NCBI GenBank assembly: GCA_031551135.1
Contig: JAVBOA010000008.1
Coordinates: forward strand, 10,563 to 74,562
DNA: 64,000 nucleotides
From: Eubacteriales bacterium
Lineage (GTDB): Bacteria; Bacillota; Clostridia; Lachnospirales; JAITVM01
Reading direction: 5' to 3'
The position numbers were made by a program, and so were the translations under genes. The notes beneath the pieces are model-generated. The model did no database searches and had not been told where the DNA came from. It saw nothing but the letters and a program-made list of their open reading frames with translations. Below, one piece after another: positions 10,177 to 55,176 of this stretch (positions are counted from its first letter, which is position 1; the number at the start of each line of letters is the position of its first letter).

Positions 10177-10188
10177 GAGTGTTTTTCT

Positions 10189-10680: not shown

Positions 10681-10696
10681 CAAAATATATACAGAA

Positions 10697-10726
10697 CGGT
10701 TTGATTTTTAATCAGAAATCAGACCG
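10697..10726 (+). other. Intercistronic stem-loop between ntpK and ntpE, with no T-run
   Basis: CGGTTTGATTT - TTAATCAG - AAATCAGACCG forms an 11-bp stem with one G.T pair. It is followed by CTAAAAG, so it is not a classical terminator. Confidence 0.5.
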
Positions 10727-10748
10727 CTAAAAGATTGGATGTGATTAT

Positions 10749-11333: not shown

Positions 11334-11342
11334 GAGGTTATT

Positions 11343-12341: not shown

Positions 12342-12660
12342 AGTTGCGGTTATGGGCGATAAATCGTCCGTATTATGTTTCAAAGCCTTTGGTATCGATG
12401 TTTTTGACTGTATCGAATCCCATGCCGACGATAATCGCAAATTGCTGGACAAATTGGCGCGGGACGGCTACGGAATGATTTTTCTTACAGAACAAGTTGC
12501 TCTTAATATAAAAGAAACGATTGATAGATATAACCGTGAGCTTACTCCGATTGTTGTTTTAATTCCAAGCAATAAAGGCAGCTTGGGAATCGGTCTGCAG
12601 CGGATAAGCGATAATGTGGAAAAAGCTGTTGGAATCAATATTTTAGACGAAGGTAGGTAA
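12334..12660 (+). CDS. ntpG: V-type ATPase subunit F (E. hirae NtpG)
   Basis: [24 protein letters not shown] is the typical subunit F N-terminus. The ATG at 12334 overlaps the ntpC stop (ATGCATAA). Confidence 0.85.
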
Positions 12661-12665
12661 AGTTA

Positions 12666-14438: not shown

Positions 14439-15801
14439 GGATTATAAAACAATAAGAGAAGTCGTTGGACCTTTGATGGTTGTAGAAAACGTTGAAGGTG
14501 TAAAATTTGACGAACTCGTGGAAATAGAAACTCAAACCGGAGAAATAAGAAAAGGAAAAGTTCTCGAGATAAACCGTGACAAGGCTGTTGTTCAGCTTTT
14601 TGAAAGCCCGCAAGGAATTAATCTCGAAAATTCAAAAGCTAAATTTTTGGCTAAGCCTTTGGAGCTTGGTGTATCTACAGATATGCTCGGACGTATTTTT
14701 GACGGTATGGGCAGGGTTAAGGACGGCGGTCCGAAAATCATACCCGAATATAAACGTGATATTAACGGTGTTCCGATTAACCCCGTTTCACGTGACTATC
14801 CCGAAGAATTTATCCAAACAGGTATTTCCGCTATCGACGGCTTAAATACTCTTGTTCGCGGTCAAAAACTTCCGGTTTTCTCGGCTTCGGGATTACCGCA
14901 TGCCGAACTTGCAAGCCAGATTGCACGTCAAGCTCAAGTTTTGGGTACAGACAGCAATTTCGCGGTTGTTTTCGCCGCCCTCGGTACTACTTTTGAAGAG
15001 GCGCAGTTTTTCATTGATGATTTCACAAAAACAGGCGCGATTCACCGTGCTGTTCTATTTGTAAATCTTGCGAACGAACCGGCGATCGAGCGTATTTCAA
15101 CACCGCGTATGGCACTTACTATGGCGGAATATCTTGCATACGAAAAAGACATGCACGTTTTGGTTATTATAACCGACATCACAAATTATTGTGAGGCTCT
15201 GCGTGAAGTTTCGGCCGCAAGAAAAGAAATTCCGGGCCGCCGCGGATATCCGGGTTATTTGTATACTGACCTTGCCGGGTTATATGAACGTGCCGGAAAA
15301 ATTAAAGGACGTAAAGGTTCGATTACTCAAATTCCGATTCTTTCTATGCCTGAAGATGATAAAACTCACCCTATTCCCGACCTTACGGGATATATAACAG
15401 AGGGTCAGATTATCCTTAGCCGTGAATTGTACCGTAAAGGCATAATGCCTCCAATCGACGTTTTACCGTCGCTTTCAAGGCTTAAGGATAAAGGTATCGG
15501 AAAAGGAAAAACCCGTGAGGATCACGCTGATACAATGAACCAGCTTTTCTCGGCTTATGCGCAAGGAAAGCAAGCAAAAGAATTGGCTGTAATTCTCGGT
15601 GAATCCGCGCTTTCTGATGTTGACAAACAGTACGCAAAATTCGCGGATGCTTTTGAAAAAAGCTATGTTTCGCAGGGTTTTGAAACAGACCGCGGAATTG
15701 AAGAAACCCTTACAATCGGTTGGGATTTATTGAAAATCCTTCCTAAAACCGAATTGAAGAGAATCAGAGACGAGTATTTGCAAAAATATATGAAAGAATA
15801 G
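14431..15801 (+). CDS. ntpB: V-type ATPase subunit B
   Basis: 456 aa. [22 protein letters not shown] and the degenerate P-loop region are typical of subunit B. It overlaps the ntpA stop. Confidence 0.97.
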
Positions 15802-15816
15802 CAAGTGGGTGAATGA

Positions 15817-16449
15817 ATGAGATTAAACGTAAATCCAAACAGGATGGAGCTATCCAAGCTAAAAAAAAGACTCGTGACCTCTAAACGCGGTCATAAGCTT
15901 TTGAAAGATAAGCAAGATGAGCTGATGCGTCGTTTTATTCTGCTTGTTAAGAGAAATAACACTCTGCGAAAAGAAATAGAAGCTGAGCTTCAAAACGCCT
16001 ATAACGATTTCGTTTTGACAGGCGCAATTATATCTCCGGATTTTTTGGAAGAAGCTCTTATATTCCCAAAACGCTCCTTGACTTTGGATATTTCTTCGGT
16101 AAATATCATGAGTGTTAATGTCCCGAAACTCGATGTAAAAATCGAATCAAAATTTGATGAGAATGATATTTATTCCTATGGATTTTATAATACATCGGAT
16201 GAGCTGGACGCCTCTTTAAACAAACTCTCAGCGATTTTGCCGAAACTTTTAGAGCTTGCTGAAATAGAAAAAACCTGTAATTTAATGACTTTTGAAATAG
16301 AAAAAACAAGGCGGCGTGTAAACGCTCTTGAATACATGACGATTCCACAATTGGAAGAAACAATTAAATATATTACAATGAAATTGGACGAAAACGAGCG
16401 TTCGGCTCTGACCCGCCTAATGAAAGTTAAAACAATGATTGCGAATTAA
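15817..16449 (+). CDS. ntpD: V-type ATPase central-stalk subunit D
   Basis: [36 protein letters not shown] is the canonical subunit D N-terminus. Confidence 0.93.
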
Positions 16450-20204: not shown

Positions 20205-21704
20205 TTAAAGTTCTTTTTTTAATTTATTAACGACTTCTTCTAATATTTTTATGCGTGCGTATTTTTTATTGTTCGACTCAATAATCTGCCACGGAGCATA
20301 TTCCGTATTTGTATTCAAAAACATTTCATTTACAGCAACTTCATACATATCCCACTTTTCACGGTTTCGCCAATCTTCTTCGGTTATTTTATAATTTTTC
20401 AATGGGTCTTCCTGTCTGGCTTTAAAACGGTTTAACTGTTCTTCTTTGTCTATTTGCAACCAAAACTTAAAAATTATCGTGCCGTGATTATGCAGATGAA
20501 ATTCCATATCGTTTATTTCGGAATATGCCCGCTGCCATTCGTCGGCAGAGCAAAATCCCTCAATACGTTCCACCATGACCCTGCCATACCAAGAACGGTC
20601 GAATATCGCAATATGTCCGTCTTTTGGGAATTTATTATAAAATCGCCAAAGATAATGATGATTTAATTCTTCTTTCGTCGGTGCGGCTACGGTAATAACT
20701 TCATAACCGCGTGGATCGAGTTCTTCTGTAAGGCGTTTTATCGAGCCGCCTTTTCCGGCAGCGTCCCAGCCTTCCATGAGAATCACAACAGATTTCCGTT
20801 TTCTGTATAATTTAAATTCCAGCTTTGCTAAATCCTTTTGCAGATTGTCCAGTTTTTCTTTATAATCTTCATCGGAAATCATTTTATTGGCGTCAATTCC
20901 GCTCAAAATAGAAATCTCAGGCGAAGTAATAATTTCCTCTTTATCAAATTCATCGTAAAGCTTGGCTTCACGAAGTTTCGTTCGGTTATTTACTTCTTCT
21001 TGGATTTTGCTGATTAAAAGTTTGAATATTTTTACGGTTGCATATTTTTTGTCATTCGCTTCGATAATCGCCCATTGGCTTTTTGTGGTATTGGTACGAG
21101 AAATCATTTCTTGAAAAAGCTTTAAATAATTCTCATATTTTAGGTTTTGCTCCATATCACGCTCATTCAAACGCCAAGCCGTATCTTCGGATTTTCCCAA
21201 TTCCTTAAAGCGCTTCTTCTGTTCATCTTTGCTGATATGCAAAAATAATTTAATAATCAGAGTTCCGTCATCTTGGTGCATTTTTTCAAATGAATTTATA
21301 TCATGAAAATATGTTTGCATTTCGTTCGGCTTCAAATCAAAATTAGCCACAGCACCCGGCAAAACCAGGCGATGCCAAGATTTATCAAAAATAGACATTC
21401 TTCCTTTTGAAGGCATTTTGCAAAAATAATTCCAAAGCGGCGGACGCATAAAAACCTCTTCAGTAACACGGCTCATTGAATAAACATTAAAATAACGCGG
21501 GTCCAAAGGATAAAGGATTTTATTAATCAGCGTGCCCTTTCCCGAAGCACTCCAGCCTTCAAAAACAATACAAACCGGAATTTCCAATTCTCGGATTTTT
21601 TGTTGCAGCAGATTTAATTTAGAATGAAGTTCTTTTATCTGCGATTGATATTCTTTCTTATCCATAGATTTATTTAAGTCAATTTTTCCAAGCAAATTAA
21701 ACAC
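20205..21704 (-). CDS. Two-domain polyphosphate kinase 2 (polyphosphate:AMP/NMP phosphotransferase type)
   Basis: Two PPK2 P-loop modules: FEGWSASGKGTLINKILYPLDPRYF and MEGWDAAGKGGSIKRLTEELDPRGYEV. The start is ambiguous between GTG 21704 and TTG 21695. Confidence 0.9.
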   Translation of the reverse strand: MFNLLGKIDLNKSMDKKEYQSQIKELHSKLNLLQQKIRELEIPVCIVFEGWSASGKGTLINKILYPLDPRYFNVYSMSRVTEEVFMRPPLWNYFCKMPSKGRMSIFDKSWHRLVLPGAVANFDLKPNEMQTYFHDINSFEKMHQDDGTLIIKLFLHISKDEQKKRFKELGKSEDTAWRLNERDMEQNLKYENYLKLFQEMISRTNTTKSQWAIIEANDKKYATVKIFKLLISKIQEEVNNRTKLREAKLYDEFDKEEIITSPEISILSGIDANKMISDEDYKEKLDNLQKDLAKLEFKLYRKRKSVVILMEGWDAAGKGGSIKRLTEELDPRGYEVITVAAPTKEELNHHYLWRFYNKFPKDGHIAIFDRSWYGRVMVERIEGFCSADEWQRAYSEINDMEFHLHNHGTIIFKFWLQIDKEEQLNRFKARQEDPLKNYKITEEDWRNREKWDMYEVAVNEMFLNTNTEYAPWQIIESNNKKYARIKILEEVVNKLKKEL

Positions 21705-34275: not shown

Positions 34276-34704
34276 TCAACTGTATTTTTGACTCTTTTGT
34301 TCGCAGTACATGCAGCGGTAAGTTTGCTTTTCTTCATTAACAAGCTTAAAAACATGGACAATCTCTTGCTCGATAGAAGTTATACATCTTGGGTTTTTGC
34401 ATTTTATTACATTGCTTAACGATTCGGGCAAAGTCAGTTTTTTCTTATCGATTATCTGACCGTTATCAATAATATTTACGGTAACATTCGGGGTTATATA
34501 TCCCAAAGCCTCGAAATTTATATCAATAACATTTTCAATCTTAATCATATCTTTTTTGCCCATTTTTTTGGATTTTACATTTTTTATAATGGCAATACTG
34601 CAATCCAGTTCTTCCATATTCAAGAGATTATAAATTTCCATTGATTTTTTTGCTTTAATATGGTCAATAACTATACCTTTTTCTATACTATCAATACTAA
34701 GCAT
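34276..34704 (-). CDS. pyrI: Aspartate carbamoyltransferase regulatory subunit
   Basis: GIVIDHI at the N-terminus and the zinc domain CKNPRCIT...YRCMYCE. Confidence 0.93.
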
Positions 34705-35620
34705 TTATTTCAACCCCTAACATTTTTAATATTAACGCCATTCTGATGAATTTTCCGTATCTTACCTGATCAAAATATTTCGCGCGCGGATCCGCGTCAA
34801 CTTCTTTGGAAATCTCGTTCACTCGCGGCAGCGGATGCATGATTACTAAATCTTCTTTAGAATTCGTAAGTTTATTTTTATCGAGGATATACAAATCCTT
34901 CAAGCGCACATAATCCTCCTCATTAAAAAATCTTTCCTTTTGCACTCGAGTCATATATAAAATATCGAGCATAGGCATAGATTCTTCTAGGTTTGTCGTT
35001 TGGACATATTCAATTTTATTAGGTTTTATATATTGATCGATTAGATAAGATGGAATTTTAAGTTCTTCCGGTGATATAAATATAAATTTGTTATTTGGAT
35101 ATGATGAAAGGGATTTTACTAAAGAATGAACCGTACGGCCGAACATTAAATCTCCGCATAAACCGATTGTTAAATTTTCCAATTTTCCTTTTGATGAAAC
35201 AATAGTTAAAATATCGGTAAGAGTCTGGGTTGGATGAGAATGACCGCCGTCTCCGGCATTGATAACAGGAATTTTAGAATATTGAGAAGCAACTAATGCA
35301 GAGCCTTCTTTTGGATGTCTGATAACAGCTATGTCCGCATATTCGGAAACAGTGCGTATTGTATCGGCAATACTTTCGCCCTTAACAGCCGAGCTGGAGT
35401 CCGCTGTCGAAAAACCAATAACAGAGCCGCCCAAGCTAAACATGGCCGATTCGAAACTTAGTCTTGTACGCGTACTTGCCTCATAAAACAAAGTAGCTAA
35501 AATTTTCCCCCTGCAAAGTGAAGAATATTTTTCGGGTTTTTTAATAATATCTTCCGCAATCTCCACAAGCTCGTTAATCTGTTGAAAATTCAACTCAGAT
35601 GAATCCAATAAGTGTTTCAT
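34697..35620 (-). CDS. pyrB: Aspartate carbamoyltransferase catalytic subunit (canonical active-site motifs)
   Basis: [21 protein letters not shown] and HPLPRV are all intact. The ATG at 35620 follows GGAGGA. The longer track ORF adds an implausible N-terminus. Confidence 0.93.
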
Positions 35621-35664
35621 AACATTCCTCCAATAATAATAGAACAAACATTCGGTTTTTGGAC

Positions 35665-35697
35665 AAAAAAAAATACGGACTTTGCGTTTTGGCAAAG
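35665..35697 (-). promoter_or_regulatory. Leader hairpin plus T9 tract upstream of pyrBI (possible UTP-sensitive attenuator or pause element)
   Basis: On the minus strand: CTTTGCCAAAACGCAAAG, then GTCCGTA, then TTTTTTTTT, 45 nt before the pyrB start. The T-run is separated from the stem by 7 nt. Confidence 0.3.
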
Positions 35698-35900: not shown

Positions 35901-36608
35901 TTAAAGCCCGAAAATATCATCTATATCTTCGTCTTCAATTACACGTTTTGATTTTTGTTCCGAATTTTTCATCATATTTTTAAGTTTTTCATCGACAGAT
36001 TTTTTGATTAAATATTCAAAATCAATGCCTCTTAATTTAAAAAACAGAAGCGGGTCCTCATCGAATTTTGCTCCGATTGCAAATAAAACCGCCGAAACAT
36101 GTTTGCACATGCTCGCCCAGTCCGGACAGGAACAAGAAAAATCAATTTCGCTGCTGCTCGGAAAAAGTCCGTTTTTCATAGTAAATAATTCCTGCAGCTC
36201 TATGGGAAATTTACCGGAAATTAATTCATCCAGATTGGATATTTTATTGCTGCAAGCCGAAACTACTCTGTTCCAATCCCGCTGACTCATTACTTCAATA
36301 TCTACTCTGACTTTATACGGAGTATTGCTACTTCCCATAACTAAAGCTTCCACAATTCCGGGATATATTTTCAAATCAATAACAAATCCGTTTTTTACAT
36401 AAGACCTTCCTCTGTCGATTCTGTTCGAATAATCGGCGTAATTTTCCAGATTTTTATTCCACGAAATTCCCCACCATTTTGTTGCAATTTTACTACCCTC
36501 GATAATTACAGGCGAAATATCGGGATTCTTTTTTCGTAGCTTTTCAATCTGTTTCTGTGCATTTAATTTTTTTTGACCGACCGGAATATATTCATAAAAA
36601 TCATACAT
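35901..36608 (-). CDS. SWIM zinc-finger protein (B. subtilis YwqB-like)
   Basis: 235 aa. The SWIM signature is CSCPDWASMCKHVSAVLFAIG. It starts 4 nt after the SNF2 gene stop. Confidence 0.8.
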   Translation of the reverse strand: MYDFYEYIPVGQKKLNAQKQIEKLRKKNPDISPVIIEGSKIATKWWGISWNKNLENYADYSNRIDRGRSYVKNGFVIDLKIYPGIVEALVMGSSNTPYKVRVDIEVMSQRDWNRVVSACSNKISNLDELISGKFPIELQELFTMKNGLFPSSSEIDFSCSCPDWASMCKHVSAVLFAIGAKFDEDPLLFFKLRGIDFEYLIKKSVDEKLKNMMKNSEQKSKRVIEDEDIDDIFGL

Positions 36609-36611
36609 ATT

Positions 36612-39233
36612 CTAAACCACCTCTAATTTAAACAGCTTCATAAGATCATCATTACTTAGCTCGGTGATCCAATTTTCTTCACTTTTCGCGATTATTTCTC
36701 CCGCAAGTTTTTGCTTGTCGTTTATCATTTTATCGATTTTTTCTTCAATCGTTCCTGTCGTTATCATTTTATGCACCATAACGTTTTTCGCCTGCCCGAT
36801 ACGGAAAACACGATCCGTTGCCTGATTTTCTATCGCAGGATTCCACCATCTGTCGAAATGTATTACATGATTCGCTTTAACGAGATTCAATCCGACACCG
36901 CCGGCTTTTAATGATAAGACCATATACGGTACATATTCATCTCCCTGAAATTTTTCTACGATTTCAGTACGTTTTTTTACCGCCGTTCCGCCGTGCAGCG
37001 AAAGTCCGCGCCTGCCGAATATTTTTTCCAGATAATCTACCAAAGGCTCTACCATTTCTCTGAACTGCGTAAAGATCAGAACGCTCTCCCGTTTTTCGCG
37101 GATTGTCTCACAAATTTCAGCTAATTTTTCAAATTTACCGCTATATTCTTCTGCAAATTTTGCCTGCCCGTTAAATTGGTCGGGATGATTGCAAATCTGT
37201 TTGAATTTAACAATACTAGCCAAAACTATGCCTTTGCGCTGTATTCCTTCGGCTGAATAGATGCTGTGCTCTATTTCTTTAACTAATTTATTATACAATA
37301 CAACCTGTTTTTTGCTGAGTCCCGCATAATCGAAAATCTCAATTTTATCCGGCAAATCACTGATTATGCTCTTGTCCGTTTTCAATCTTCTTAAAATAAA
37401 AGGACTTATTATATTTTTCAAATTGGAGTAGTTTTCATTCTCTGACATATTTTTAATCAAAGTGGAAAATTCTTTATTTGTGCCCAAAAGCCCTTTGTTC
37501 AAGAAATCAAAAATTGACCACAAATCCGAGAGCTTGTTTTCTATCGGAGTTCCTGTCATTGCGATTTTAAAATCAGCCTTGATCTCTTTAACGGCTTTTG
37601 TTTGTTTTGTAGACGGATTTTTAATCGCCTGCGCCTCGTCCAAAATCAGTATGTCCCATTTGTTTTCTCTAAGTTTTTCAAGCTTTAAAGCCATTCCGTA
37701 AGTTGTTATAAATAAATCGGCGTTTTCAAAATCCAGCTCTGTTTTGTTTCCGTGCAAAATATTATATTTTATCAGCGGCGCAAATTTCATCAGTTCTTTT
37801 TCCCAGTTACCGATTAATGAAGCCGGTATTATTAACAACGCTTTAAAATCTCTCCTTTGACGGATATATTCCAAAAACGCAATTATCTGAACAGTTTTTC
37901 CAAGTCCCATATCGTCCGCCAAAAGTGCTCCGAATTTTAAATTGTTCATCATCGTCAGCCAGCTAAATCCCGATTGTTGATAATGCCTTAAATCAGCTTT
38001 AAAATCACTGCCGATTTTTAGATTTTTATTGACTTCCGGAGCACTTAGGCTTTTTTTCAGATTTTCCATCCATTCACCGCTTTTAATCTCGATGTCTAAA
38101 TCCGAATCTTCGTCTTGAAATAAAAGTTTATTCGGATTCAACTGCATGCGCATTGCATCCGCAAAGCTCAATCCATCGCCGTCCGCTAATTCATTTGCTC
38201 TTTCAAAGGCCTCCAAAGCCGCTTTCAGCTTTTCTTGGTCTACTTCTATCCACTTTCCTTTTATAAAATAAAGTCCGTTTGTTTTGCTAATCAAATCTTC
38301 AATTTCTTCTTTTGTAAAGCTCTCGTCTCTAAAATAAATTTCAGGTCTGAAACTCAAAATCGCATCCAGCCCGACAGCAGACGGCGGCTGCTCACCAATC
38401 GCAACCGAAACCCTGAGCATATTGGATTTTTTACGCCACCAATCGGGAATACGGCATAATATTCCGCTTTCTTCATACAGCGGCACTTCTTTTAAAAACT
38501 CGAAAGCATCTTCTTTTCCGAATTTCAGAGGCGAAAATATTTCTCCGCTTTCGATTAAATCGGATAAAAAATCACTTTTGTCCGCCGCCTGACTAACAGA
38601 AGATAGGAGCTTAAGCAATAAATCCCGTTGGTTTTGAAATTCCAGAAGTGCGTTTTTCAGCGGAATATGATTCGATTTCATTTCAGCTTTTTCGGTAGAA
38701 TATGTAGCCAAAAATGCGAACGGATAATCATCCGATTTGCTTTCAACCAAATGAAAGAAAACCCGTCCGAAAATTTTGGTTTGATTATTGATTGATTTTA
38801 AAAAATCCTGAACTGTCCCGCCGAATTTCGCAAGCTCCGATTCAAAAACTTCGGACAATTTCGTCCATTGAGTCTTTATCCAATTTATGCTTATATATTC
38901 CATGCCTATAGCAAAAGGCATTTCTTTCATAAGACTATAAGCATCAAAATCTTCAATCATGCTTGGCTTTTTTGTAAATTCAATTGCGGGATTTTGTGAA
39001 ATATACTCAATAAATCTAAAACTAAGTTTATGGATAAAGCTCAAGGATGGCGAAATATCCCTTGGTCTTGAAGCGAATCCAAAATAAAACAAAGTTTTGT
39101 TCTGATTATTTTTAAAATCCTCAAAAAATTTATCATCTGCATAGTAATTTTTATTGCCGGTTGTCTCGTAGTCAATCGAAAATCCGTCTTCTGTAAAATA
39201 TACAATGAGTTCTTTATTCAAAATTCCCACCAT
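36612..39233 (-). CDS. SNF2-family DEAD/H helicase (RapA/YwqA-like)
   Basis: 873 aa. Motifs LADDMGLGKT, LILDEAQAIKN, MTGTPIENKLSDLW and SLKAGGVGLNLVKANHVIHFDRWWNPAIENQATDRVFRIGQ. Confidence 0.9.
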   Translation of the reverse strand: MVGILNKELIVYFTEDGFSIDYETTGNKNYYADDKFFEDFKNNQNKTLFYFGFASRPRDISPSLSFIHKLSFRFIEYISQNPAIEFTKKPSMIEDFDAYSLMKEMPFAIGMEYISINWIKTQWTKLSEVFESELAKFGGTVQDFLKSINNQTKIFGRVFFHLVESKSDDYPFAFLATYSTEKAEMKSNHIPLKNALLEFQNQRDLLLKLLSSVSQAADKSDFLSDLIESGEIFSPLKFGKEDAFEFLKEVPLYEESGILCRIPDWWRKKSNMLRVSVAIGEQPPSAVGLDAILSFRPEIYFRDESFTKEEIEDLISKTNGLYFIKGKWIEVDQEKLKAALEAFERANELADGDGLSFADAMRMQLNPNKLLFQDEDSDLDIEIKSGEWMENLKKSLSAPEVNKNLKIGSDFKADLRHYQQSGFSWLTMMNNLKFGALLADDMGLGKTVQIIAFLEYIRQRRDFKALLIIPASLIGNWEKELMKFAPLIKYNILHGNKTELDFENADLFITTYGMALKLEKLRENKWDILILDEAQAIKNPSTKQTKAVKEIKADFKIAMTGTPIENKLSDLWSIFDFLNKGLLGTNKEFSTLIKNMSENENYSNLKNIISPFILRRLKTDKSIISDLPDKIEIFDYAGLSKKQVVLYNKLVKEIEHSIYSAEGIQRKGIVLASIVKFKQICNHPDQFNGQAKFAEEYSGKFEKLAEICETIREKRESVLIFTQFREMVEPLVDYLEKIFGRRGLSLHGGTAVKKRTEIVEKFQGDEYVPYMVLSLKAGGVGLNLVKANHVIHFDRWWNPAIENQATDRVFRIGQAKNVMVHKMITTGTIEEKIDKMINDKQKLAGEIIAKSEENWITELSNDDLMKLFKLEVV

Positions 39234-42867: not shown

Positions 42868-43365
42868 ATGAGAAAATATTCAGAATTTTTTGATTCACTA
42901 GACACAATCCCAATCGAAAAACTCCCTGATCTTGAGCTTTATATGGATCAAGTCACCAAATTTTTAGATGATAAACTTTTAGCTTATAAGCAAGAAAAAA
43001 GTGATAGAGCCATTACAAAAACAATGGTCAACAATTATACAAAAGCAAAAATGCTTCCTGTTTCAAACAAAAAAAAATACAGCAAAGAGCATTTACTATT
43101 CTTGATTTTAATTTTCCATTTAAAATCAATTTTGTCAATCGACGATATTTCGAAAATAATCGGCCTTTTGCCGGACTCAATTTCGGATTTTTACGGAAGC
43201 TTTTTAAAAATTCAGGAAGAGCAAATCTCAAAGCTAAAGGAAGAAAACGAAAAATCCAATATAAATGATAAAATGGAACTTATATTTTCGCTTGCCTTCG
43301 AAATCGAATTAAAAAAAATGATGATAGAATATATTTTGAACCAAGACAGTGAAATAATAAACTAA
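42868..43365 (+). CDS. DUF1836 domain protein
   Basis: ITKTMVNNYTKAKMLPVSNKKKYSKEHLLFLILIFHLKSILSIDDI matches the DUF1836 core as I recall it. Confidence 0.6.
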   Translation: MRKYSEFFDSLDTIPIEKLPDLELYMDQVTKFLDDKLLAYKQEKSDRAITKTMVNNYTKAKMLPVSNKKKYSKEHLLFLILIFHLKSILSIDDISKIIGLLPDSISDFYGSFLKIQEEQISKLKEENEKSNINDKMELIFSLAFEIELKKMMIEYILNQDSEIIN

Positions 43366-43435: not shown

Positions 43436-44119
43436 TTAAATCAAAACCACGTTTATATTCACGTCATTAATTCCGGCGGATTCCAAAAATGTGCCGACTA
43501 ATTCTCTTAAAGATTTAATTGTGTTTTCGTTAGCAAGTTTCAGCATTTGTTCTTCATGCAATTCCAAATACATAGAATTTTTAACTTTTTTAATTAATTC
43601 ATTTTGTTCAGCGGCGGTTAGTTTTATTTCGCCGAATCTTAAAAGTCCGTTTGTTGTTGAATAAATTTCTGTTTTATCATTCAAAATTTCCAGAGATGAA
43701 ACAACCGGTTTTTTTGCTTTGACTGTTAAAATATTGCTGTCCGGATTATATATAATCATATCTTTTGTAATCTCTGCCAAATCAGTCGAAAATTTCGCTT
43801 TCGAATAAAAAACCATATTCTGATATTTTTTAAGTATGTCCCATTCATAAATAGAATTGTCCCATTGAACCTCCTGCTTGAGGTCTGTCTCCATTGTCAC
43901 GAGTTCTTTTTTCCCTTGAATATTTTGAACCATAACTTCGTCAACTTTGATTTTTTTCATTATTTTGTCAACATCAGGCATTTGAATGTTCATAGGTTTG
44001 TTTTGATCCAGAAAAGCCGCCTTTGATTCCTTTTGAAAATTCATTGCGAAAATAAACCCCACAATAACAAAGACTACTGCCATTAATACAAAATTTCTGA
44101 TTTTTTTCAAAATTTTCAC
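43436..44119 (-). CDS. Hypothetical membrane-anchored protein (possibly DUF4230-like), last gene of the lspA...pyrC' block
   Basis: 227 aa with one N-terminal TM helix. The start is ambiguous between GTG 44119 and TTG 44110. There is a 4-nt gap to the upstream gene. Confidence 0.55.
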   Translation of the reverse strand: MKILKKIRNFVLMAVVFVIVGFIFAMNFQKESKAAFLDQNKPMNIQMPDVDKIMKKIKVDEVMVQNIQGKKELVTMETDLKQEVQWDNSIYEWDILKKYQNMVFYSKAKFSTDLAEITKDMIIYNPDSNILTVKAKKPVVSSLEILNDKTEIYSTTNGLLRFGEIKLTAAEQNELIKKVKNSMYLELHEEQMLKLANENTIKSLRELVGTFLESAGINDVNINVVLI

Positions 44120-44123
44120 CCCT

Positions 44124-45404
44124 CTAAAATTCTTGTAAATACATAATTCTGCCGTTTACAATTGTGCCCAAAACTTTTCCTTTTAGCTTCATGCCGTCGT
44201 ACGGCGAAAACTTGGCTTTAGAAGCGAAATTTTCCGCTGTAATTTGATTTTCCGCATCGATATCAAAAATAAATAAATCGCCGGACATTCCGATTTCAAT
44301 ATTTCCTTTATTGCTTAGATTTAAAAATTTTGCCGGATTTAGAGTAAATTTTTCTATTAAATTTATTATACTCATTTTGCGCTCAATAACAAGGGCATTG
44401 TATGAGATAAGAAAAGCGGTTTCCAAAGAAGAAATTCCATAGGAAGCAGATTCAAATTCGCAAGTTTTTTGTTCGATTGTCGAAGGTGAATGACCGGAGG
44501 ATATAATATCGATTGTACCGTCAAAAATCCCTTCAATAATCGCTTCAACGTCGCTTTTTGTCCTAAGCGGCGGTTTTACTTTACAAAAAGTATTGTAATT
44601 TTCGAGCGAATCTTCGGTCAATGTAAAATAATGCGGGCAAGTATCGCAAGTCACTTTAATTCCGTCTTTTTTCGCCTGCCTGATTAATTCGACCGAACCT
44701 TTTGTGCTGATATTCGCTATATGAATTCTGGAGTTTGCGTATTTTGCTAAAATCAAATTTCTGGCAAGCGTAATTTCCTCTGATTCGCGCGGAATCCCCC
44801 GAAGCCCGGTTTGCGTTGAAATTATTCCTTTATTTATAACGCCGTCGCCCGATACGGATTTATCTTCACAAAAAGTTATCACAGGAATATCAAACATTGT
44901 TGCGTATTTCAAAACATTGCTGAGCAGAAGCGCGTCATAAAAAGCCTTGCCGCCGTCCGAAATCGCAACAATTCCGGCGCGCTTCATTTCGCCGATTTCC
45001 GCCATCTGATTGCCCAAAAGCCCTTTTGTCATGCCGCCGTATTGAAAAATATTTACATAAGATAATTCTTTCGCTTTATTTTCGATATATTTAACGACGG
45101 TTTTATCATCGATTACCGGCATTGTGTCCGGCGAAGCCGTGAGCGACGTAAATCCGCCTTTTATCGCAGATTTTGAGGCAGAGGCGATATCCTCTTTATT
45201 TTCGAAACCGGGATCGCAGATTTTACATGATGTATCGATAAGTCCCGGGAAAACATATTTTTCTTTAACATCGATATATTCAGGAATATTATAATTTAAA
45301 TTTTTTCCGATTTCGATAATTTCGCCGTAATCAATATAAATATCAACAATCTCTAAAACTCCATCTTTATTAAACACAGAAGCATTTTTAATTAAAGTTC
45401 TCAT
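44124..45404 (-). CDS. Dihydroorotase-like protein lacking all metal-binding and catalytic residues (PyrC'-type pseudoenzyme)
   Basis: 426 aa and collinear with type I DHOase, but DLHVHLREPG is replaced by DTSCKICDPG, HCED by FCED, HxCHxS by HIANIS, and TDHAPH by SGHSPS. Confidence 0.85.
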   Translation of the reverse strand: MRTLIKNASVFNKDGVLEIVDIYIDYGEIIEIGKNLNYNIPEYIDVKEKYVFPGLIDTSCKICDPGFENKEDIASASKSAIKGGFTSLTASPDTMPVIDDKTVVKYIENKAKELSYVNIFQYGGMTKGLLGNQMAEIGEMKRAGIVAISDGGKAFYDALLLSNVLKYATMFDIPVITFCEDKSVSGDGVINKGIISTQTGLRGIPRESEEITLARNLILAKYANSRIHIANISTKGSVELIRQAKKDGIKVTCDTCPHYFTLTEDSLENYNTFCKVKPPLRTKSDVEAIIEGIFDGTIDIISSGHSPSTIEQKTCEFESASYGISSLETAFLISYNALVIERKMSIINLIEKFTLNPAKFLNLSNKGNIEIGMSGDLFIFDIDAENQITAENFASKAKFSPYDGMKLKGKVLGTIVNGRIMYLQEF

Positions 45405-46338
45405 CTATCGGTTTACCTCTCATAGAAAGTAAATACAAAAGCGCCATTCTGACCGCCACGCCATTTGTAATCTGATCGTCTATCAAACAATTTTTCGAGT
45501 CAATGACTTGTGAAGAAATTTCTATTCCGCGGTTGATTGGGCCGGGATGCATTACGATTACATCTTTTTTTGCATAAGAGAGCATTTTCTGATCTATTTT
45601 AAATAGATTACGATATTCGTTTATCGAGGGCAAAAGCGAACCATATTGCCTTTCGGTCTGCATCCGCAAAGCAAGCACAACATCAGCGTCCTCCATGCCT
45701 TCGTAAGCATTATAAAAAACTTTCACACCGAAATCTTCAAGATAATCGGGAATTAAAGTCGGCGGCCCCACTACAGAAACTTTTGCGCCGAGCGTAGTAA
45801 GCGCCCAAATGTTACTGCGGCTGACTCTGCTATGCGCAACATCTCCGATAATTGTTACTTTCAAATTTTCAAAACTGCCTTTTTGCTCTTTTATTGTCAA
45901 AAGGTCGAGCATTGACTGTGTAGGGTTTTCGTTTATTCCGTCGCCTGCGTTTATCACGCTTGCTTCGACATTTTCAGCCAGAAGTTTTGCCGAGCCTGAC
46001 ATCGGGTGGCGTATTATAATAAAATTGCAGCCCATTTGGTCAATAATTCTGCCGAGATCCAGTAAATTTCCAAAATCTCCGTTGTTTACGCCGAGTTTCA
46101 TTTCAACAACATTCGCGCCCAAATATCCGGCGGCAAGCTCATAAGAAAGCCTGTTTCGGGATACGGTATCACTAAAAAGCGTCAAAACCGATTTTCCTTC
46201 TAAAATCAAAGCTCTTTTGTTTTTTTGCGAAATTACAAATTTCATTGTTTCGGCAACTTTTAAAATATATTGAATTTCTTCGCTCTCAACCCCTCTTAAA
46301 GTTACGAAATCTTTTCGCATAAATTTCAACGCGAACAC
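45388..46338 (-). CDS. Aspartate carbamoyltransferase-like protein (B. subtilis-type fold) with a degenerate carbamoyl-phosphate site
   Basis: Collinear with B. subtilis PyrB (GDVAHSRVSRSN, LRMQTER and HPGPINRG are conserved). However, STRTR is VSRNR, QHPTQ is ENPTQ, and the QKGE loop is GDFG. The start is ambiguous between 46338 and 46320. Confidence 0.8.
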   Translation of the reverse strand: MFALKFMRKDFVTLRGVESEEIQYILKVAETMKFVISQKNKRALILEGKSVLTLFSDTVSRNRLSYELAAGYLGANVVEMKLGVNNGDFGNLLDLGRIIDQMGCNFIIIRHPMSGSAKLLAENVEASVINAGDGINENPTQSMLDLLTIKEQKGSFENLKVTIIGDVAHSRVSRSNIWALTTLGAKVSVVGPPTLIPDYLEDFGVKVFYNAYEGMEDADVVLALRMQTERQYGSLLPSINEYRNLFKIDQKMLSYAKKDVIVMHPGPINRGIEISSQVIDSKNCLIDDQITNGVAVRMALLYLLSMRGKPIDENFN

Positions 46339-46370: not shown

Positions 46371-47285
46371 TTATTTTTGCTTAAGCGTACAAATTAATTT
46401 TTGAAAATATTCGGGTAATTCCGATTCGAATTCCATATATTCTTTGGTTTTAGGATGAATAAAACCCAAAATTTTAGCGTGCAGTGCTTGTCCTTCCAAT
46501 TTGTAAGGCTGTTTCTCTCTGCCATATATTTTATCGCCCAAAAGCGGATGACCGGAATCTGACATATGTACACGAATCTGATGCGTGCGTCCGGTTTCCA
46601 GAACCGCCTCGATTAAAGTAAAGCCGTTAAATCTATGTAGGACTTTAAAATTCGTAACGGCATTCTTTCCGTTTTTATAATTTACAGCCATTTTTTTTCG
46701 GTCTTTTATATCGCGCCCGATAGGTTTATTTATAGTTCCGCTGTCTTCGGCGATATTTCCGAAAACAATCGCATGATATTTTCGTGTTATCGTATGCGCC
46801 GAAAATTGCTCCGAAAGATAGGAGTGTGCTTTATCATTTTTCGCCGCAATTAAAATTCCGGATGTGTCCTTGTCTATACGATGCACAATCCCCGGCCGCA
46901 AAACACCGTTTATTCCAGATAAAGAATCTCCGCAATGGTTCAAAAGAGCGTTTACAAGCGTTCCTTCGTAATGCCCCGGCGCAGGATGAACCACTAAATT
47001 CTGCGGTTTATTTATAACAATTAAGTCGTCATCTTCATATAAAATATCAAGAGGAATATCCTCTCCCTGCAATTCCAATTTTCTGTTTTTGGGTATATCG
47101 ACCGAAATTATGTCTCGCAATTTAGTTTTATAATTTGATTTTTCAATTTTATTATTAACCGTAACATAACCGCTTTCGATTAGTTTTTGCAGCATATTAC
47201 GAGATTTTTCTATTATATTTTCGGAAAGAAAATGATCCAGCCTTTTGTTTATATCAAATTCGGGAACAATGAAAGTTTTATTCAT
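46371..47285 (-). CDS. rluD: 23S rRNA pseudouridine synthase RluD family
   Basis: S4 domain plus HRIDKDTSGILIAAKN. The ATG at 47285 overlaps the lspA stop (ATGAATAA). The track start at 47309 is also possible. Confidence 0.9.
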   Translation of the reverse strand: MNKTFIVPEFDINKRLDHFLSENIIEKSRNMLQKLIESGYVTVNNKIEKSNYKTKLRDIISVDIPKNRKLELQGEDIPLDILYEDDDLIVINKPQNLVVHPAPGHYEGTLVNALLNHCGDSLSGINGVLRPGIVHRIDKDTSGILIAAKNDKAHSYLSEQFSAHTITRKYHAIVFGNIAEDSGTINKPIGRDIKDRKKMAVNYKNGKNAVTNFKVLHRFNGFTLIEAVLETGRTHQIRVHMSDSGHPLLGDKIYGREKQPYKLEGQALHAKILGFIHPKTKEYMEFESELPEYFQKLICTLKQK

Positions 47286-47793
47286 TTTTAACACCGCTGA
47301 TTTCATCATCTTTTATAAAAAATATCACAAGAATTGACAGCAAAATCGCGCCAACAACAACATAGGAATCTGCTAAATTAAACACAGGAAAATCCATAAA
47401 CTTTATAAAAGTGGCATGAAAAAAATCTATAACATAACCCCTAAAAAGACGGTCAATATAATTTCCCACAGCGCCCGCCAAGATTAAAACAAGACAGCCT
47501 CTGACAAGATTGTAAATTTTTGTTTTCGGTAATTTTATATAATAATAAATCATAATGGAGATAACAATCGTGGTTGAGATTATAAAAAACCATCTCCAAT
47601 TCTGCATTAAACCAAACGCCGCGCCCCTATTTTCCACATAAGTAAAATTAAAAACGCCGTTGATTAAATAAATCGAGCCGATTTCCTTTAGATTATTCAG
47701 CGCTATCCATTTTGTAATCTGATCCAAAGCAACCAAAAAAATAAATATAGATACAGTCAAAATCACAATTATACCCCTAACTGCCTTATGCAA
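47278..47793 (-). CDS. lspA: Lipoprotein signal peptidase II
   Basis: VENRGAAFG and FNLADS motifs, with 4 TM helices. Confidence 0.92.
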   Translation of the reverse strand: MHKAVRGIIVILTVSIFIFLVALDQITKWIALNNLKEIGSIYLINGVFNFTYVENRGAAFGLMQNWRWFFIISTTIVISIMIYYYIKLPKTKIYNLVRGCLVLILAGAVGNYIDRLFRGYVIDFFHATFIKFMDFPVFNLADSYVVVGAILLSILVIFFIKDDEISGVKNE

Positions 47794-51547: not shown

Positions 51548-52813
51548 TTATGAGTTTTGCAATAAAGTTTGTTTTACTTGCTCTTCCAATTTTTTGATTT
51601 CAACTTCTGCAAGTGCTCTCTCTTCTTTGCCCTTTTTTTGGATGGCCACAACGCCGTTTATTGTTTCGATCAGATTATTATTTGTAATCTGCAAGGTTTC
51701 GAGGCTCACTATTCCTCTTTCGCCCTCTTCCGCAATTTCTAAAGCGCCTTGTTTTAATAATTCGCTGTTACGCTGCAAAAGCTCATTTGTAGTATCCGTA
51801 ATATGTTTTTGCAAACCAAGCGCCGCTCTGTTATTTGCTATTCCCAAAGATATAACCATTTGACTTTTCCAAACAGGAATTGCCGTAAAAATCGAATTTT
51901 GAATTTGATAAACCAATTGTTCGCTGCCTTGCTGAACCAATCTGATTTGCGGTGCGTTTTGAATACTCACCAATCTTGTACGCAAAAGGTCATCAATTTT
52001 CTTTTCAAATTTTACTTGGATATCATTCATTTCATTGTATTTCTGGATTTCCATTTGGTCGTTGGAAGAAGTAGCAGCTTCTTTTTGTTTGGCAACTTCC
52101 TGCGTATACGATTTTAATTTTTCCTTAGCGGCAATTAAAATATAAGTAAGTTCTTTATAATACTGAACGTTTGTATTATACATTCCGTCCATGATTTTAA
52201 CATTACCAATTAATTTATCCTTAGATTTTTCAAGCTTATCGACAATCGTATCAATTGTTTTTTCAACAGTATCAAATTTTGCAAGCATTTTTTCAGTTTC
52301 TTTTTTCGATAAAACAATTTGATTTTTAATTTGTTTGCCGATGTTTGAAGCTCCTTCGGAAGCTTTTTTTGCGCCCGAATTTAATCCGCCGAAAAGATTC
52401 GATAAAAATCCCGGCTTGGAATCGTCTTTAAAATCAAAATTTTTGATTTCCGAGGTAAGGTCAACCAACGAATTAGCAACATCGGCATCCAATTCATTTA
52501 CTTTTATGCTTCTCAAAATTTGGTCGCAAAACTCGGCTATTTTCTGCTGAGTATTAACGCCGTAAGTTATTACGCCGTCTGTAGAAGATAAATCGATTTT
52601 TGAAACAATGTTTTCCACCAATTGGCGTTCTTGCGGGGTCAAAATTTCCAATGACAAACTATCCTTAGTTTTTTCCTGAACTTCCGTGCTTTGCGACTGT
52701 GCAGGCGGCTCTACGACTTTAGATTCTCCGTATGGGTCAATATCCATCAGAGGCGCGCCGTTATCCGGTAATCCCATTTCAAAATCTTTCATTATTCCGT
52801 TGTTTTCTTCCAT
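51548..52813 (-). CDS. telA: TelA / YaaN family toxic anion resistance protein
   Basis: 421 aa. All-helical TelA-type sequence, with about 50 aa of acidic N-terminal extension. Confidence 0.8.
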   Translation of the reverse strand: MEENNGIMKDFEMGLPDNGAPLMDIDPYGESKVVEPPAQSQSTEVQEKTKDSLSLEILTPQERQLVENIVSKIDLSSTDGVITYGVNTQQKIAEFCDQILRSIKVNELDADVANSLVDLTSEIKNFDFKDDSKPGFLSNLFGGLNSGAKKASEGASNIGKQIKNQIVLSKKETEKMLAKFDTVEKTIDTIVDKLEKSKDKLIGNVKIMDGMYNTNVQYYKELTYILIAAKEKLKSYTQEVAKQKEAATSSNDQMEIQKYNEMNDIQVKFEKKIDDLLRTRLVSIQNAPQIRLVQQGSEQLVYQIQNSIFTAIPVWKSQMVISLGIANNRAALGLQKHITDTTNELLQRNSELLKQGALEIAEEGERGIVSLETLQITNNNLIETINGVVAIQKKGKEERALAEVEIKKLEEQVKQTLLQNS

Positions 52814-52828
52814 AAATACAATCCCCTT

Positions 52829-53473
52829 TCAATTTTTACTTACATTATTATATGCGTCACAAAATTCAAAAAAGCAACAAATTTCGCACTTAGGTTTTCG
52901 GGCAATACAAATTTTTCTGCCATGTGCGATAACTTGTGTGTTATATTTAATCCAGCTTTTTTTGGGAAGTATCTTCATTAATTCAAATTCAATTTTTTCG
53001 GGGTCTTCGGATTTCACAAGCCCTAGTTTATTGGAAATACGTTTAACATGTGTATCCACAACTATGCTTGGAATATTAAAAATATGTCCGCGCACAACAT
53101 TTGCGGTTTTTCTGCCCACGCCGGCCAGAGATGTAAGGCTTTCAATATCCGAAGGCATTTTAGAATCAAAATCGCTTATCAATTTATTACAGCAATTGAT
53201 TATATTTTTAGCTTTATTGCGGTAAAATCCCGTCGATCTGATATCTTCCATTAAAGTAATGAAATCCGCATTCGCAAAATCCTCGATAGATTTATATTTT
53301 TTAAAAAGCGATTGTGTAACAATATTCACTCTGTCATCGGTGCATTGCGCGCTTAAAATCGTTGCAATCAAAAGCTGCCAATCTTTTTCATAATTCAAAT
53401 AGCATTTAGTATCTTGAGGATAATTTTCATCTAAAAGCGCAAGAGTTTTTTTTACTTTTTCTTTTTTTGTCAA
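52829..53473 (-). CDS. nth: Endonuclease III
   Basis: HhH motif LTSLAGVGRKTANVV, the catalytic-Lys region, and the 4Fe-4S cluster CIARKPKCEICCFFEFC. Confidence 0.93.
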   Translation of the reverse strand: MTKKEKVKKTLALLDENYPQDTKCYLNYEKDWQLLIATILSAQCTDDRVNIVTQSLFKKYKSIEDFANADFITLMEDIRSTGFYRNKAKNIINCCNKLISDFDSKMPSDIESLTSLAGVGRKTANVVRGHIFNIPSIVVDTHVKRISNKLGLVKSEDPEKIEFELMKILPKKSWIKYNTQVIAHGRKICIARKPKCEICCFFEFCDAYNNVSKN

Positions 53474-55176
53474 GCTTCAGCCTCCAATAGAAATTCTGTC
53501 ATTAAATTCGTAATATCAAAAGCCTCAACAGAATCAGCATATCTGAAAATAATATACGAAATTTGTTTTTTTCGGTCTCCCAAAATGTCATAATTAAATT
53601 TTTTTACATTATAGTTTTTTAAACGCTGTCTGTAATTTGCCGTTGTACCAAAACAAAAATGATTGCTTTCTTTCATAAATCTAAGGATAGCATTTTTTTC
53701 TGATTCGGAAATTGTATCCTCAAAAATATCCGGCAGAGTCTTTAGATTCTCGTTTAATAAAATATCGTATTTAATTAAATCAGACAGTAATTCTCGATTA
53801 AGATTTTTTACGGATTCCGCAAATTTAAATAAATATTTCGGAATAAAGAGTTTATTATGTTTCAGAAGATTTAATTTATTGCTTTCCCAAAAAATTCCCA
53901 AGCTATAAAAAAAGTCGAAAGGCGAGTCAAAAAAATCCAGCAAATAGTTTAAAGATTTTTCAAATCTATTTGTATTATAGAACAATTCGACAATATCTTC
54001 AATCGATTTTAAATCTAAAATTTCCTCAAAACTGAGCCACATAGTGGAAATCACTTCATATGGCGCATTTGCACGGTATTTAATCTCAAACTCTTTTGCC
54101 TTTTCTTTTATTCCCGTTTCTTTCAAGACTTTCAAAAATCCCAATTGAAACTGCTCCGGGCGCAAAGCAAAAACATCATTGAAAGATTTTTTAAAAGAAT
54201 CAAAATCCTCGAACGGCAGTCCCGCAATCAAATCCAAATGCTGGTGAATATTTCCGAAGGATTTAATAATCCGCACGTTTTCGAATAATTTATCCAGATT
54301 CGTTTTTCTTGTAATCGCATCCAAAGTCTTTATATTTGTAGATTGAACGCCGATTTCGAATTGAAAAAGTCCTTTGCGGGCTTTTTGCAGCAGTAATATT
54401 TGTTTTTTATTAATTAAATCAGCGGCTATTTCAAAATGAAAATTCGAAATCCCGTTGTCGTTTTCAATCAAAAATTCCCAAATCTTATAAGTCCGTTCGG
54501 GTTCGCAATTAAATGTGCGGTCAACAAATTTAACCTGCTTTATATTATTATCCAAAAAGATTTTCAAATCAGAAAAAACTCTATCCAACGAGAGATTTCG
54601 AACGCCCGAAACTAAAGAAGACATGCAATATTGGCATTTGAACGGACAGCCGCGGCTTGTCTCATAATAAATAATACGATTCTCCAATCCGGAAAAATCT
54701 TGATAAACAAAGTCTATTTCATCAAGCTGAATTGCGTCATTTGCATTATATTCCGAATTTTCTTTTGTTAAGATTCCTTTTATTTCAGATAGACTTGTTT
54801 TTTTATACAAAAAACAATCAACAATTTCCGAAAAAGGCTTTTCGCCTTCTCCCAAAACCACGATATCAATATTTTTATTTTCATTTAAGCCATATGCCTC
54901 CGGTCCACCCGCAATAATAAAAATATTCGGATCGGCTTTTTTCAGCGTATCGATAATTTGCAGATTATTTTCGATATTCCAAATATAAAAAGAAAAACCG
55001 ATAATCTTGATTTTTGTTCGGTATATCTCAGCAGTTATGCTGTCCAAATTATTATTTATTGTAAATTCTTTAATAATGATATCTGCGTTTTTATCTTTTA
55101 CAAATCCTTTGAGCGAATACAGACCAAGTGCGGAATGTATAAATTTTGCGTTTAGCGCGACAAGTAAAAATTTCAT
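53470..55176 (-). CDS. B12-binding-domain radical SAM protein with a DUF4080-like C-terminus
   Basis: 568 aa. The N-terminal B12-like domain is followed by ETSRGCPFKCQYC (CxxxCxxC). Confidence 0.85.
   Translation of the reverse strand: MKFLLVALNAKFIHSALGLYSLKGFVKDKNADIIIKEFTINNNLDSITAEIYRTKIKIIGFSFYIWNIENNLQIIDTLKKADPNIFIIAGGPEAYGLNENKNIDIVVLGEGEKPFSEIVDCFLYKKTSLSEIKGILTKENSEYNANDAIQLDEIDFVYQDFSGLENRIIYYETSRGCPFKCQYCMSSLVSGVRNLSLDRVFSDLKIFLDNNIKQVKFVDRTFNCEPERTYKIWEFLIENDNGISNFHFEIAADLINKKQILLLQKARKGLFQFEIGVQSTNIKTLDAITRKTNLDKLFENVRIIKSFGNIHQHLDLIAGLPFEDFDSFKKSFNDVFALRPEQFQLGFLKVLKETGIKEKAKEFEIKYRANAPYEVISTMWLSFEEILDLKSIEDIVELFYNTNRFEKSLNYLLDFFDSPFDFFYSLGIFWESNKLNLLKHNKLFIPKYLFKFAESVKNLNRELLSDLIKYDILLNENLKTLPDIFEDTISESEKNAILRFMKESNHFCFGTTANYRQRLKNYNVKKFNYDILGDRKKQISYIIFRYADSVEAFDITNLMTEFLLEAEA

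Follow-up and report, generated by a model that had tools for sequence, protein, structure and literature searches.

Divergent pyrB- and pyrC-like genes beside rluD in Lachnospirales: a conserved pair probably kept for a non-catalytic role

Why should a bacterium keep, side by side and under strong selection, two genes of pyrimidine biosynthesis whose products have lost the residues on which their chemistry depends? The question is raised by a 64-kb stretch of DNA from a Eubacteriales bacterium of the Lachnospirales (contig JAVBOA010000008.1; the whole 64,000 nucleotides are referred to here as the window), which carries on its minus strand an overlapping pair of genes encoding an aspartate transcarbamoylase (ATCase)-like protein, PyrB', and a type-I dihydroorotase (DHOase)-like protein, PyrC'. 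We consider it rather likely that the pair descends from a Bacillus/Clostridium-type pyrB-pyrC, is catalytically dead and has been conserved for a non-catalytic role. Both open reading frames (ORFs) and their 17-nt overlap had been picked out in an earlier reading of the DNA (the original prediction), and were recovered in the same places:

45388..46338, minus strand: pyrB', ATCase-like, 316 aa counted from the GTG at 46338; Pfam OTCace_N and OTCace
44124..45404, minus strand: pyrC', type-I DHOase-like, 426 aa; Pfam Amidohydro_1/DHOase
45388..45404, minus strand: overlap of pyrB' and pyrC', 17 nt, with the pyrB' stop over the pyrC' start

Active sites of PyrB' and PyrC'

PyrB' matches the two-domain OTCace_N and OTCace fold in Pfam with E-values of 6e-28 and 1e-29, and the sole NCBIfam model that PyrC' passes is TIGR00857, at the subfamily level; it falls under all NCBIfam dihydroorotase equivalog cut-offs (best 435 bits vs a cut-off of 786). 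The start of pyrB' is ambiguous between GTG 46338, which opens the ORF, TTG 46329 and ATG 46320, the last of these being the database call (310 aa). TTG 46329 aligns with the Met of most PyrB' family members and has GGTG 6 nt upstream, and the true start is likely to be either this TTG or ATG 46320.

PyrC' runs collinear with the DHOase of B. anthracis (3mpg/4yiw) from residue 2 to residue 425, without a gap in any of the motifs; it was also aligned to chain A of the Aquifex complex 3d6n. Against 3mpg, DVHVHLREPG becomes DTSCKICDPG, HCEE becomes FCED, HVCHVST becomes HIANIST and TDHAPH becomes SGHSPS, with the loss of both His of the HxH motif (now S-C-K), both beta-site His (now F and N), the catalytic Asp, the substrate Arg and the terminal His. 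In type-I DHOases the HxH motif and the Asp of beta-strand 8 provide the alpha-site ligands. The original prediction had every metal ligand of PyrC' replaced, which holds for all but one: the bridging Asp150 is retained (AFTDDG to AISDGG).

These losses extend well beyond the window, through a group of Clostridia, gut-dwelling and anaerobic. Relatives found by homology search were combined with sequences from genome loci into sets of 139 PyrB' and 138 PyrC' clade members. His is found in none of the 138 PyrC' sequences at H61 (the second HxH His) or H308 (the terminal His of TDHAPH), the catalytic, metal-binding Asp of beta-strand 8 (D304) is Gly in 137, the substrate Arg (R63) is Cys in 132, and the bridging Asp is retained in 135. 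The residual His persist at H59 (the first HxH His) in 93 sequences, at beta-site H178 in 90 and at H231 in 94. They decay independently in sublineages and, being retained in only about two-thirds of the clade, are evidently dispensable, to judge from this pattern of substitution. The window protein is an unusually degenerate member, in that most of its clade retain the His of three of the six metal ligands. PyrC' thus lacks residues essential in every characterised member of its family, and the contention that it is not a zinc amidohydrolase draws support from ligand and catalytic losses that run through the whole clade. A Cys4 metal or iron-sulphur site in place of the zinc centre, made up of the CxxC at the old HxH and the Cys of HCED and CPHYF, was considered and rejected as a derived feature because P0220, the canonical DHOase nearest to it, already has three of the four Cys (HCHLRDPG, HCED, CPHYF); the only Cys new relative to P0220 is the one that replaces Arg63.

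PyrB' was aligned to the B. subtilis ATCase (2at2/3r7d), gapless at the motifs, and to chain B of 3d6n. Here STRTR becomes VSRNR, SVQKGE becomes NNGDFG and QHPTQ becomes ENPTQ: Ser52, Thr55, Lys84 (where there is an Asp) and His134 are gone, SxRT, the site for the phosphate and carbonyl of carbamoyl phosphate, is broken to V-S-R-N, and HPxQ is broken to N-P-T-Q. The aspartate-binding Arg167, Arg229 and Gln231 and the HPxP motif are all present, within a sequence that retains IRH, HSRV, LRMQ and HPGP. Lys84 sits on the 80s loop and is contributed to the neighbouring ATCase active site, and E. coli ATCase mutants at K84, H134 or T55 are each strongly impaired. Across the clade neither Lys84 nor His134 occurs in any of the 139 sequences, position 134 being Asn in 119 and Asp in 20, and the 80s loop is hypervariable in both sequence and length, deletions included. 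Position 55 is Ala in 107 and Thr in 20, Arg56 is replaced by Lys in 114, Ser52 is retained in 122, Gln231 in just 58, and Arg234 of the 240s loop is unconstrained. The phosphate- and carboxylate-binding residues are retained at 88-99%: Arg54 in 129, Arg105 in 138, Gln137 in 137, Arg167 in 138 and Arg229 in 123, with Lys in a further 15. The alteration of the carbamoyl-phosphate site that had been read from the window therefore recurs, with the same changes, across the 139 homologues. All known transcarbamylases share the motifs SxRT, HPxQ and HxLP, and the 80s and 240s loops determine second-substrate specificity in the superfamily (PMC4581275). PyrB' lacks residues essential in every characterised member of its family, and we infer that it is inactive.

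All of the motif substitutions in the original prediction reappear in the gapless alignments to 3mpg and 2at2, as do the aspartate-domain motifs that it had described as intact (HSRV, LRMQ and HPGP, retained in the alignment to 2at2). AlphaFold2 models were built from the family alignments and compared with known structures using Foldseek. For PyrB' the model has a predicted local distance difference test score (pLDDT) of 89 and a predicted template modelling score (pTM) of 0.89, with confidence lowest in the 80s loop; for PyrC' the values are 86 and 0.90, with confidence lowest in the active-site loops. The PyrB' model matches B. subtilis ATCase at template modelling (TM) scores of 0.82-0.89 (top match 3r7l), and the PyrC' model matches B. 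anthracis DHOase 3mpg at 0.93, over the TIM-barrel and adjacent domain of about 425 aa. The top matches include the two chains of 3d6n, the ATCase-DHOase complex of Aquifex, and PyrC' also finds structural matches in the Aquifex H180A/H232A complex 4bjh and in the CRMPs. A shifted alignment that would restore the catalytic residues, which the original prediction had named as its possible undoing, is ruled out because the alignments to PDB structures are gapless at all motifs and the models superpose on ATCase and DHOase structures at TM 0.82-0.94: the residues are absent, not shifted. When the clade is set against 47 canonical relatives, the positions conserved in the latter and changed in the former lie almost all in the active site or catalytic loops, and the remainder of both proteins is canonical-like.

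Conservation, pairing and history of the locus

Homology searches returned 120 close relatives of each protein, at 58-79% identity for PyrB' and 49-77% for PyrC', the named sources being [Clostridium] colinum, Tyzzerella, Anaerotignum, Epulopiscium, Defluviitaleaceae and metagenome-assembled genomes (MAGs) labelled "Clostridiales bacterium". When representatives clustered at 50% identity were searched exhaustively, the PyrB' clade fell entirely under one of them (P0113), and the next, at 54% identity, is wholly canonical (STRTR, KGE, NEHPTQ). A genome collection was then scanned with the PyrC' alignment, using patterns biased towards PyrC', and yielded at least 80 loci, which were sorted by motif state. 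Wherever a degenerate PyrC' has readable upstream sequence (about 20 of the loci listed), the adjoining ATCase-like gene always carries Asn or Asp in place of His134, in most cases together with T55A and R56K; such loci include those of Anaerotignum lactatifermentans DSM 14214, Defluviitaleaceae and Candidatus Metalachnospira. Both genes are canonical in about 55 of the loci listed, the exceptions to the pairing of canonical DHOase with canonical ATCase being L069 and L077.

In neighbour-joining trees the degenerate PyrB' and PyrC' sets are each monophyletic, without canonical intruders, and in all loci the two genes are full-length, intact ORFs. Relative to the closest non-identical relative, L008, the ratio of nonsynonymous to synonymous substitution rates (dN/dS) is 0.06 for PyrB' and 0.09 for PyrC', values that are upper-range estimates as dS is saturated in this comparison; identity to L008 is 79% for PyrB' and 77% for PyrC', vs 65% for the C-terminus of RluD and 54% for the neighbouring DUF4230 protein. 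Many columns outside the active sites are invariant. The substitutions read from the window thus mark a pair of single origin, co-inherited and co-retained across Lachnospirales families under strong purifying selection. Translational coupling, proposed earlier from the 17-nt overlap, is made more plausible by similarly tight junctions in relatives: a 4-nt overlap in L004 (Anaerotignum) and in the canonical L005, and a 2-nt gap in L003 (C. colinum).

One further locus, L058:5070-7269 (JAQSXR010000003.1), with rluD directly upstream, carries a version of the pair that is either intermediate or divergent. Its PyrC' retains the catalytic Asp and three His and is without the substrate Arg and two further His, the second of HxH and the terminal one; its PyrB' has NSSSR, a His at the Arg105 position and an Asn at 134.

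The genes that bear on the history of the pair, both adjoining it and elsewhere in the window, are:

46371..47309, minus strand: rluD, RluA-family pseudouridine synthase (NCBIfam TIGR00005/NF008385), directly upstream of pyrB'
47278..47793, minus strand: lspA, signal peptidase II (NCBIfam TIGR00077), upstream of rluD
43436..44119, minus strand: DUF4230 membrane-anchored protein (Pfam PF14014), 4 nt downstream of pyrC'
34697..35695, minus strand: canonical pyrB, E. coli/class B type (NCBIfam TIGR00670, 330.7 bits)
34276..34704, minus strand: pyrI, ATCase regulatory subunit (NCBIfam NF002063, 193 bits vs a cut-off of 171), overlapping pyrB

In Bacillus, pyrR and pyrP lie between rluD and pyrB. 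The Bacillus-type synteny claimed in the original prediction accordingly stands as regards the order lspA-rluD-pyrB'-pyrC' and fails as regards pyrR and pyrP, which are missing between rluD and pyrB'. Among canonical relatives the order is rluD, PyrR-binding RNA, pyrR, pyrB, pyrC, pyrF, carA, carB, pyrK. In the degenerate loci listed, rluD adjoins pyrB' in most of those that have upstream sequence (the lspA-rluD context was also examined in L001, L003 and L004), and pyrR and the downstream genes pyrF-carAB-pyrK are missing. The PyrR-binding RNA (RF00515) is detected at the gathering threshold in four of ten canonical loci vs none of ten degenerate ones, and a search for it across the window found none. 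With pyrR, RF00515 and the downstream pyr genes gone from the locus, the pair is best read as a stripped remnant of a Bacillus/Clostridium-type pyr operon, and it is removed from pyrimidine-responsive control.

The canonical pyrB-pyrI pair, previously placed about 10 kb away, lies at a distance of 9.7 kb and is supported by NCBIfam; its PyrB has every motif intact (STRTR, KGE, HPTQ, GRT, RVQ, HPLP). The suggestion made earlier, that its presence leaves the divergent pair at liberty to take on another role, is supported. At the pyrBI loci of relatives, identified as homologues of this protein, pyrBI is likewise a stand-alone pair without pyrC, and a family scan found no other amidohydrolase among the larger ORFs of the window. 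The canonical pyrB ORF (332 aa, from a TTG) is some 25 codons longer than the database call P0390; its start is probably near 35620, because the NCBIfam match begins at residue 27 and the database call is 307 aa long.

What lies 3' of pyrC' varies: SMC in 10 of 22 loci listed (an Anaerotignum-like subclade), rimP-nusA in C. colinum, and DUF4230 in the window. A gene of about 1190 aa directly follows pyrC', overlapping it or within about 40 nt, in L004, L009, L011, L013, L016-L020 and L033, and was confirmed as SMC in L004, where the order is lspA-rluD-pyrB'-pyrC'-smc and then ftsY. The DUF4230 gene follows pyrC' in L001, L002 and L008, is missing from L003, L004 and the majority of the remaining loci, and is probably outside the conserved unit. 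A divergent gene for a DUF1836 protein (42868-43365, plus strand) adjoins it in the window, and the trio of pyrB', pyrC' and DUF4230 occurs only in L001, L002 and L008. A promoter and terminator scan of 43-50.4 kb gave weak promoter-like matches modestly above shuffled controls, terminator-like counts near expectation, and no convincing terminator between rluD and pyrB'; the pair is probably co-transcribed with aroB-lspA-rluD, as no convincing terminator separates them.

Possible roles of the pair

Known ATCase-DHOase variants have either both chains active (Aquifex, Streptomyces, CAD) or the DHOase alone dead (Pseudomonas, fungal Ura2). The open-access literature searched (inactive/pseudo ATCase, pseudo-DHOase) contained no description of a pair with two degenerate chains or of the Clostridial clade that carries it. 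The nearest precedent is the class A ATCase of Pseudomonas, a dodecamer of PyrB and an inactive PyrC', or pseudo-DHOase (PMC7053772; Schurr et al. 1995, as cited in PMC4581275). The window pair resembles it in having adjacent or overlapping pyrB and pyrC' genes, and in a full-length partner of type-I DHOase fold without metal or catalytic residues that would serve a non-catalytic role. In Pseudomonas, however, the ATCase chain is competent and it is the complex that serves the cell as ATCase, whereas the ATCase-like chain of the window lacks, by sequence criteria, the His of HPxQ, the Thr of SxRT and Lys84, a separate pyrBI supplies ATCase, and the clade derives from a Firmicute-type pyrB/pyrC beside rluD. 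The window pair would therefore extend the PyrB-PyrC' arrangement to one with both partners dead. The ATCase-DHOase of Aquifex aeolicus (3d6n, 4bjh) ranks, for PyrB' and PyrC' alike, with the nearest structures that have been solved, and its type-I DHOase has, like PyrC', a bridging Asp in place of the carboxylated Lys; both of its subunits are active, whereas the window pair has no complete active site. Aquifex DHOase depends on its ATCase partner. Canonical Clostridia pyr operons (L005, L023, L025, L041 and L054) resemble the window locus in their position beside rluD, in gene order and in coupling, with 47-54% identity to its proteins, but they have all the catalytic residues, pyrR and the PyrR RNA, and the downstream pyr genes, none of which is found there.

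Other inactive or reassigned relatives are less alike. Fungal Ura2, with an inactive DHOase-like domain, and the CRMP/DPYSL proteins are also amidohydrolase folds without metal sites that have structural or scaffolding roles, but they are eukaryotic, belong to another subfamily or domain context and have no dead ATCase partner. The 'pseudo-ATCases' of Barba et al. (2013), which include ureidoglycine carbamoyltransferase (UGTCase), keep STRT and HPTQ and change RxQ (PMC4016543). These too are ATCase paralogues that are annotated as ATCase and coexist with a genuine one; they lie, however, in purine or hydantoin catabolic clusters and not beside rluD. An identity of this type was rejected for the window clade, in which STRT and HPTQ are broken, R167 and R229 are retained and the context is another.

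An independent precedent within the Clostridia for a non-catalytic ATCase-like partner is seemingly provided by L069:5009-5998 (JAZRUF010000087.1) and L077:5048-6013 (CAKUEM010000001.1), where a degenerate ATCase-like gene (pyrB*) stands beside a DHOase with every catalytic residue. The order is pyrR-pyrB*-pyrC-pyrF-carA in L069 and pyrB*-pyrC-pyrF in L077, in which pyrR and carA were not seen. Both ATCase-like proteins are without Arg167, Arg229, Gln231 and Lys84, and that of L069 also has Gln in place of His134. This suggests that in some Oscillospiraceae/Eubacteriales MAGs an active type-I DHOase can keep a dead ATCase-like protein as its partner, the reverse of the situation in Pseudomonas. 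Isolated degenerate ATCase homologues were also seen in P0246 (NEQPTQ/HNPI), P0270 (NENPSQ, without the RH of R105/H106) and P0295 (LSPI). Pseudoenzymes with the ATCase fold may have originated on several occasions.

For the pair in the window, the preferred account is of an ancestor within the Lachnospirales (Anaerotignum, Tyzzerella/[Clostridium] colinum, Epulopiscium, Defluviitaleaceae and uncultured relatives) in which the pyr operon beside rluD would have been dismantled, with pyrR, the RNA attenuator and pyrF-carAB-pyrK lost from that site and ATCase activity supplied by a separate pyrBI. The leftover pyrB and pyrC would have shed the residues of their chemistry and kept fold, length, gene order and translational coupling, and their products may still assemble like the ATCase-DHOase dodecamer of Aquifex and Pseudomonas, acting non-catalytically; complex formation is proposed by analogy with these systems. 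The most likely specific role, in which we have low confidence, is that of a complex tied to the metabolism of pyrimidines or carbamoyl phosphate, which would act as a scaffold or else bind a ligand as a sensor or regulator. It is favoured because PyrB' retains its arginines and Gln137 though the catalytic residues and the 80s and 240s loops vary, a freedom that argues against a new, defined enzymatic substrate. That L069 and L077 have lost Arg167 and Arg229, which the present clade has kept, further suggests that ligand binding, and not the fold alone, is under selection.

Several points weigh against this account. PyrB' is accepted by the NCBIfam ATCase equivalog NF002032 at 317.6 vs a cut-off of 263, so pipelines will label it a genuine ATCase; its presumed inactivity is extrapolated from mutagenesis in E. 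coli, Aquifex and Pseudomonas, and the retained arginines might permit residual or altered chemistry; the degenerate loci listed share no third gene or regulatory element that would hint at a particular non-catalytic role; and should genomes bearing the pair have no intact pyrC elsewhere, PyrC' or another source must supply DHOase. The pair might instead be an ordinary class A arrangement, with PyrB' a working ATCase isozyme beside PyrBI, perhaps weak or differently regulated, and inactive PyrC' its structural partner. Such an isozyme would account for the equivalog match and for the retention of R54, R105, Q137, R167, R229 and HPGP, and an inactive DHOase partner encoded by overlapping genes fits the Pseudomonas model (PMC7053772). 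We nevertheless regard it as unlikely, for the His universal among transcarbamylases (PMC4581275) is replaced in all 139 sequences and the Thr in 119 of them. Lys84 is absent throughout, the 80s loop varies to the point of deletion, Gln231 and Arg234 are unconstrained, and control by pyrR and the PyrR RNA is gone from the locus. The strong impairment of the E. coli K84, H134 and T55 mutants tells against it as well.

PyrB' could alternatively be a neofunctionalised enzyme, its Asn/Asp-based site moving another acyl- or phosphoryl-activated group or carbamoylating another acceptor, with PyrC' an obligatory subunit that might add residues to a composite site. Position 134 is indeed conserved in itself, as Asn or Asp only within an invariant N-E-[ND]-P motif, the four active-site arginines are conserved, and other 'pseudo-ATCases', UGTCase for example, proved to be real enzymes (PMC4016543). 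Yet the N and E of NEN are already present in canonical relatives (NEHPTQ), the change of RxQ with STRT and HPTQ kept in known pseudo-ATCases is the opposite pattern (PMC4016543), in the loci listed the pair has no consistent link to metabolic genes, and hypervariable 80s and 240s loops, given their role in specificity (PMC4581275), are ill-suited to a defined acceptor site. We find neofunctionalisation distinctly improbable, and the variability of the loops argues against an enzyme with a different substrate or with the different donor raised in the original prediction. Decay into non-functional relics, open merely by chance, would suit the loss of catalytic residues from both proteins and the independent erosion of H59, H178 and H231, but hardly the intact, full-length ORFs in all loci, dN/dS of 0.06-0.09, identity above that of neighbouring housekeeping genes, many invariant columns outside the active sites, or two monophyletic clades co-retained across Lachnospirales families; the selection data effectively refute it, and we give it very little credence. 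A further proposal, and a rather doubtful one, is that PyrB' and PyrC' form a small-molecule-sensing pseudoenzyme complex, or that PyrB' performs chemistry without the universal His and Thr. In its sensing form, a hollow ATCase/DHOase-like dodecamer would bind carbamoyl phosphate, carbamoyl-aspartate or a nucleotide through the pocket of Arg54, Arg105, Arg167 and Arg229, and would replace PyrR-type control or regulate PyrBI, carbamoyl-phosphate synthetase or the true DHOase.

If the favoured reading of a dead, retained pair is right, two dead partners held at dN/dS below 0.1 would be a new state, implying a selectable non-catalytic function of the assembly as sensor, regulator or scaffold, and would offer a clean system for studying the retention of pseudoenzymes in what is a textbook case of quaternary-structure evolution. 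There is also a practical consequence: pipelines name PyrB' 'aspartate carbamoyltransferase catalytic subunit' and PyrC' 'dihydroorotase', so that metabolic reconstructions of Anaerotignum, Tyzzerella, Epulopiscium, Defluviitaleaceae and gut MAGs may miscount pyrB and pyrC and mis-call pyrimidine prototrophy.

Other features of the window

Immediately upstream of pyrBI, on the minus strand at 35901-39233, lie genes for an 873-aa SNF2-family helicase and then a 235-aa protein without a family match. The helicase has partial matches to models of defence-system helicases (ZorD, DrmD and the SCO1167 family), all far under the cut-offs, and the two genes might represent an insertion, either mobile or defensive. 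An operon for a V/A-type ATPase, in which subunits I, C/AC39, A and B were identified, occupies 7719-16449 on the plus strand, with a GC content of 0.41-0.42 vs about 0.34. On the minus strand, 20205-21704 encodes a two-domain polyphosphate kinase 2 (PPK2) of 499 aa with two matched stretches, and 51548-55176 encodes a TelA-like toxic-anion-resistance protein, an HhH-GPD glycosylase and a B12-binding radical SAM protein with DUF4080.

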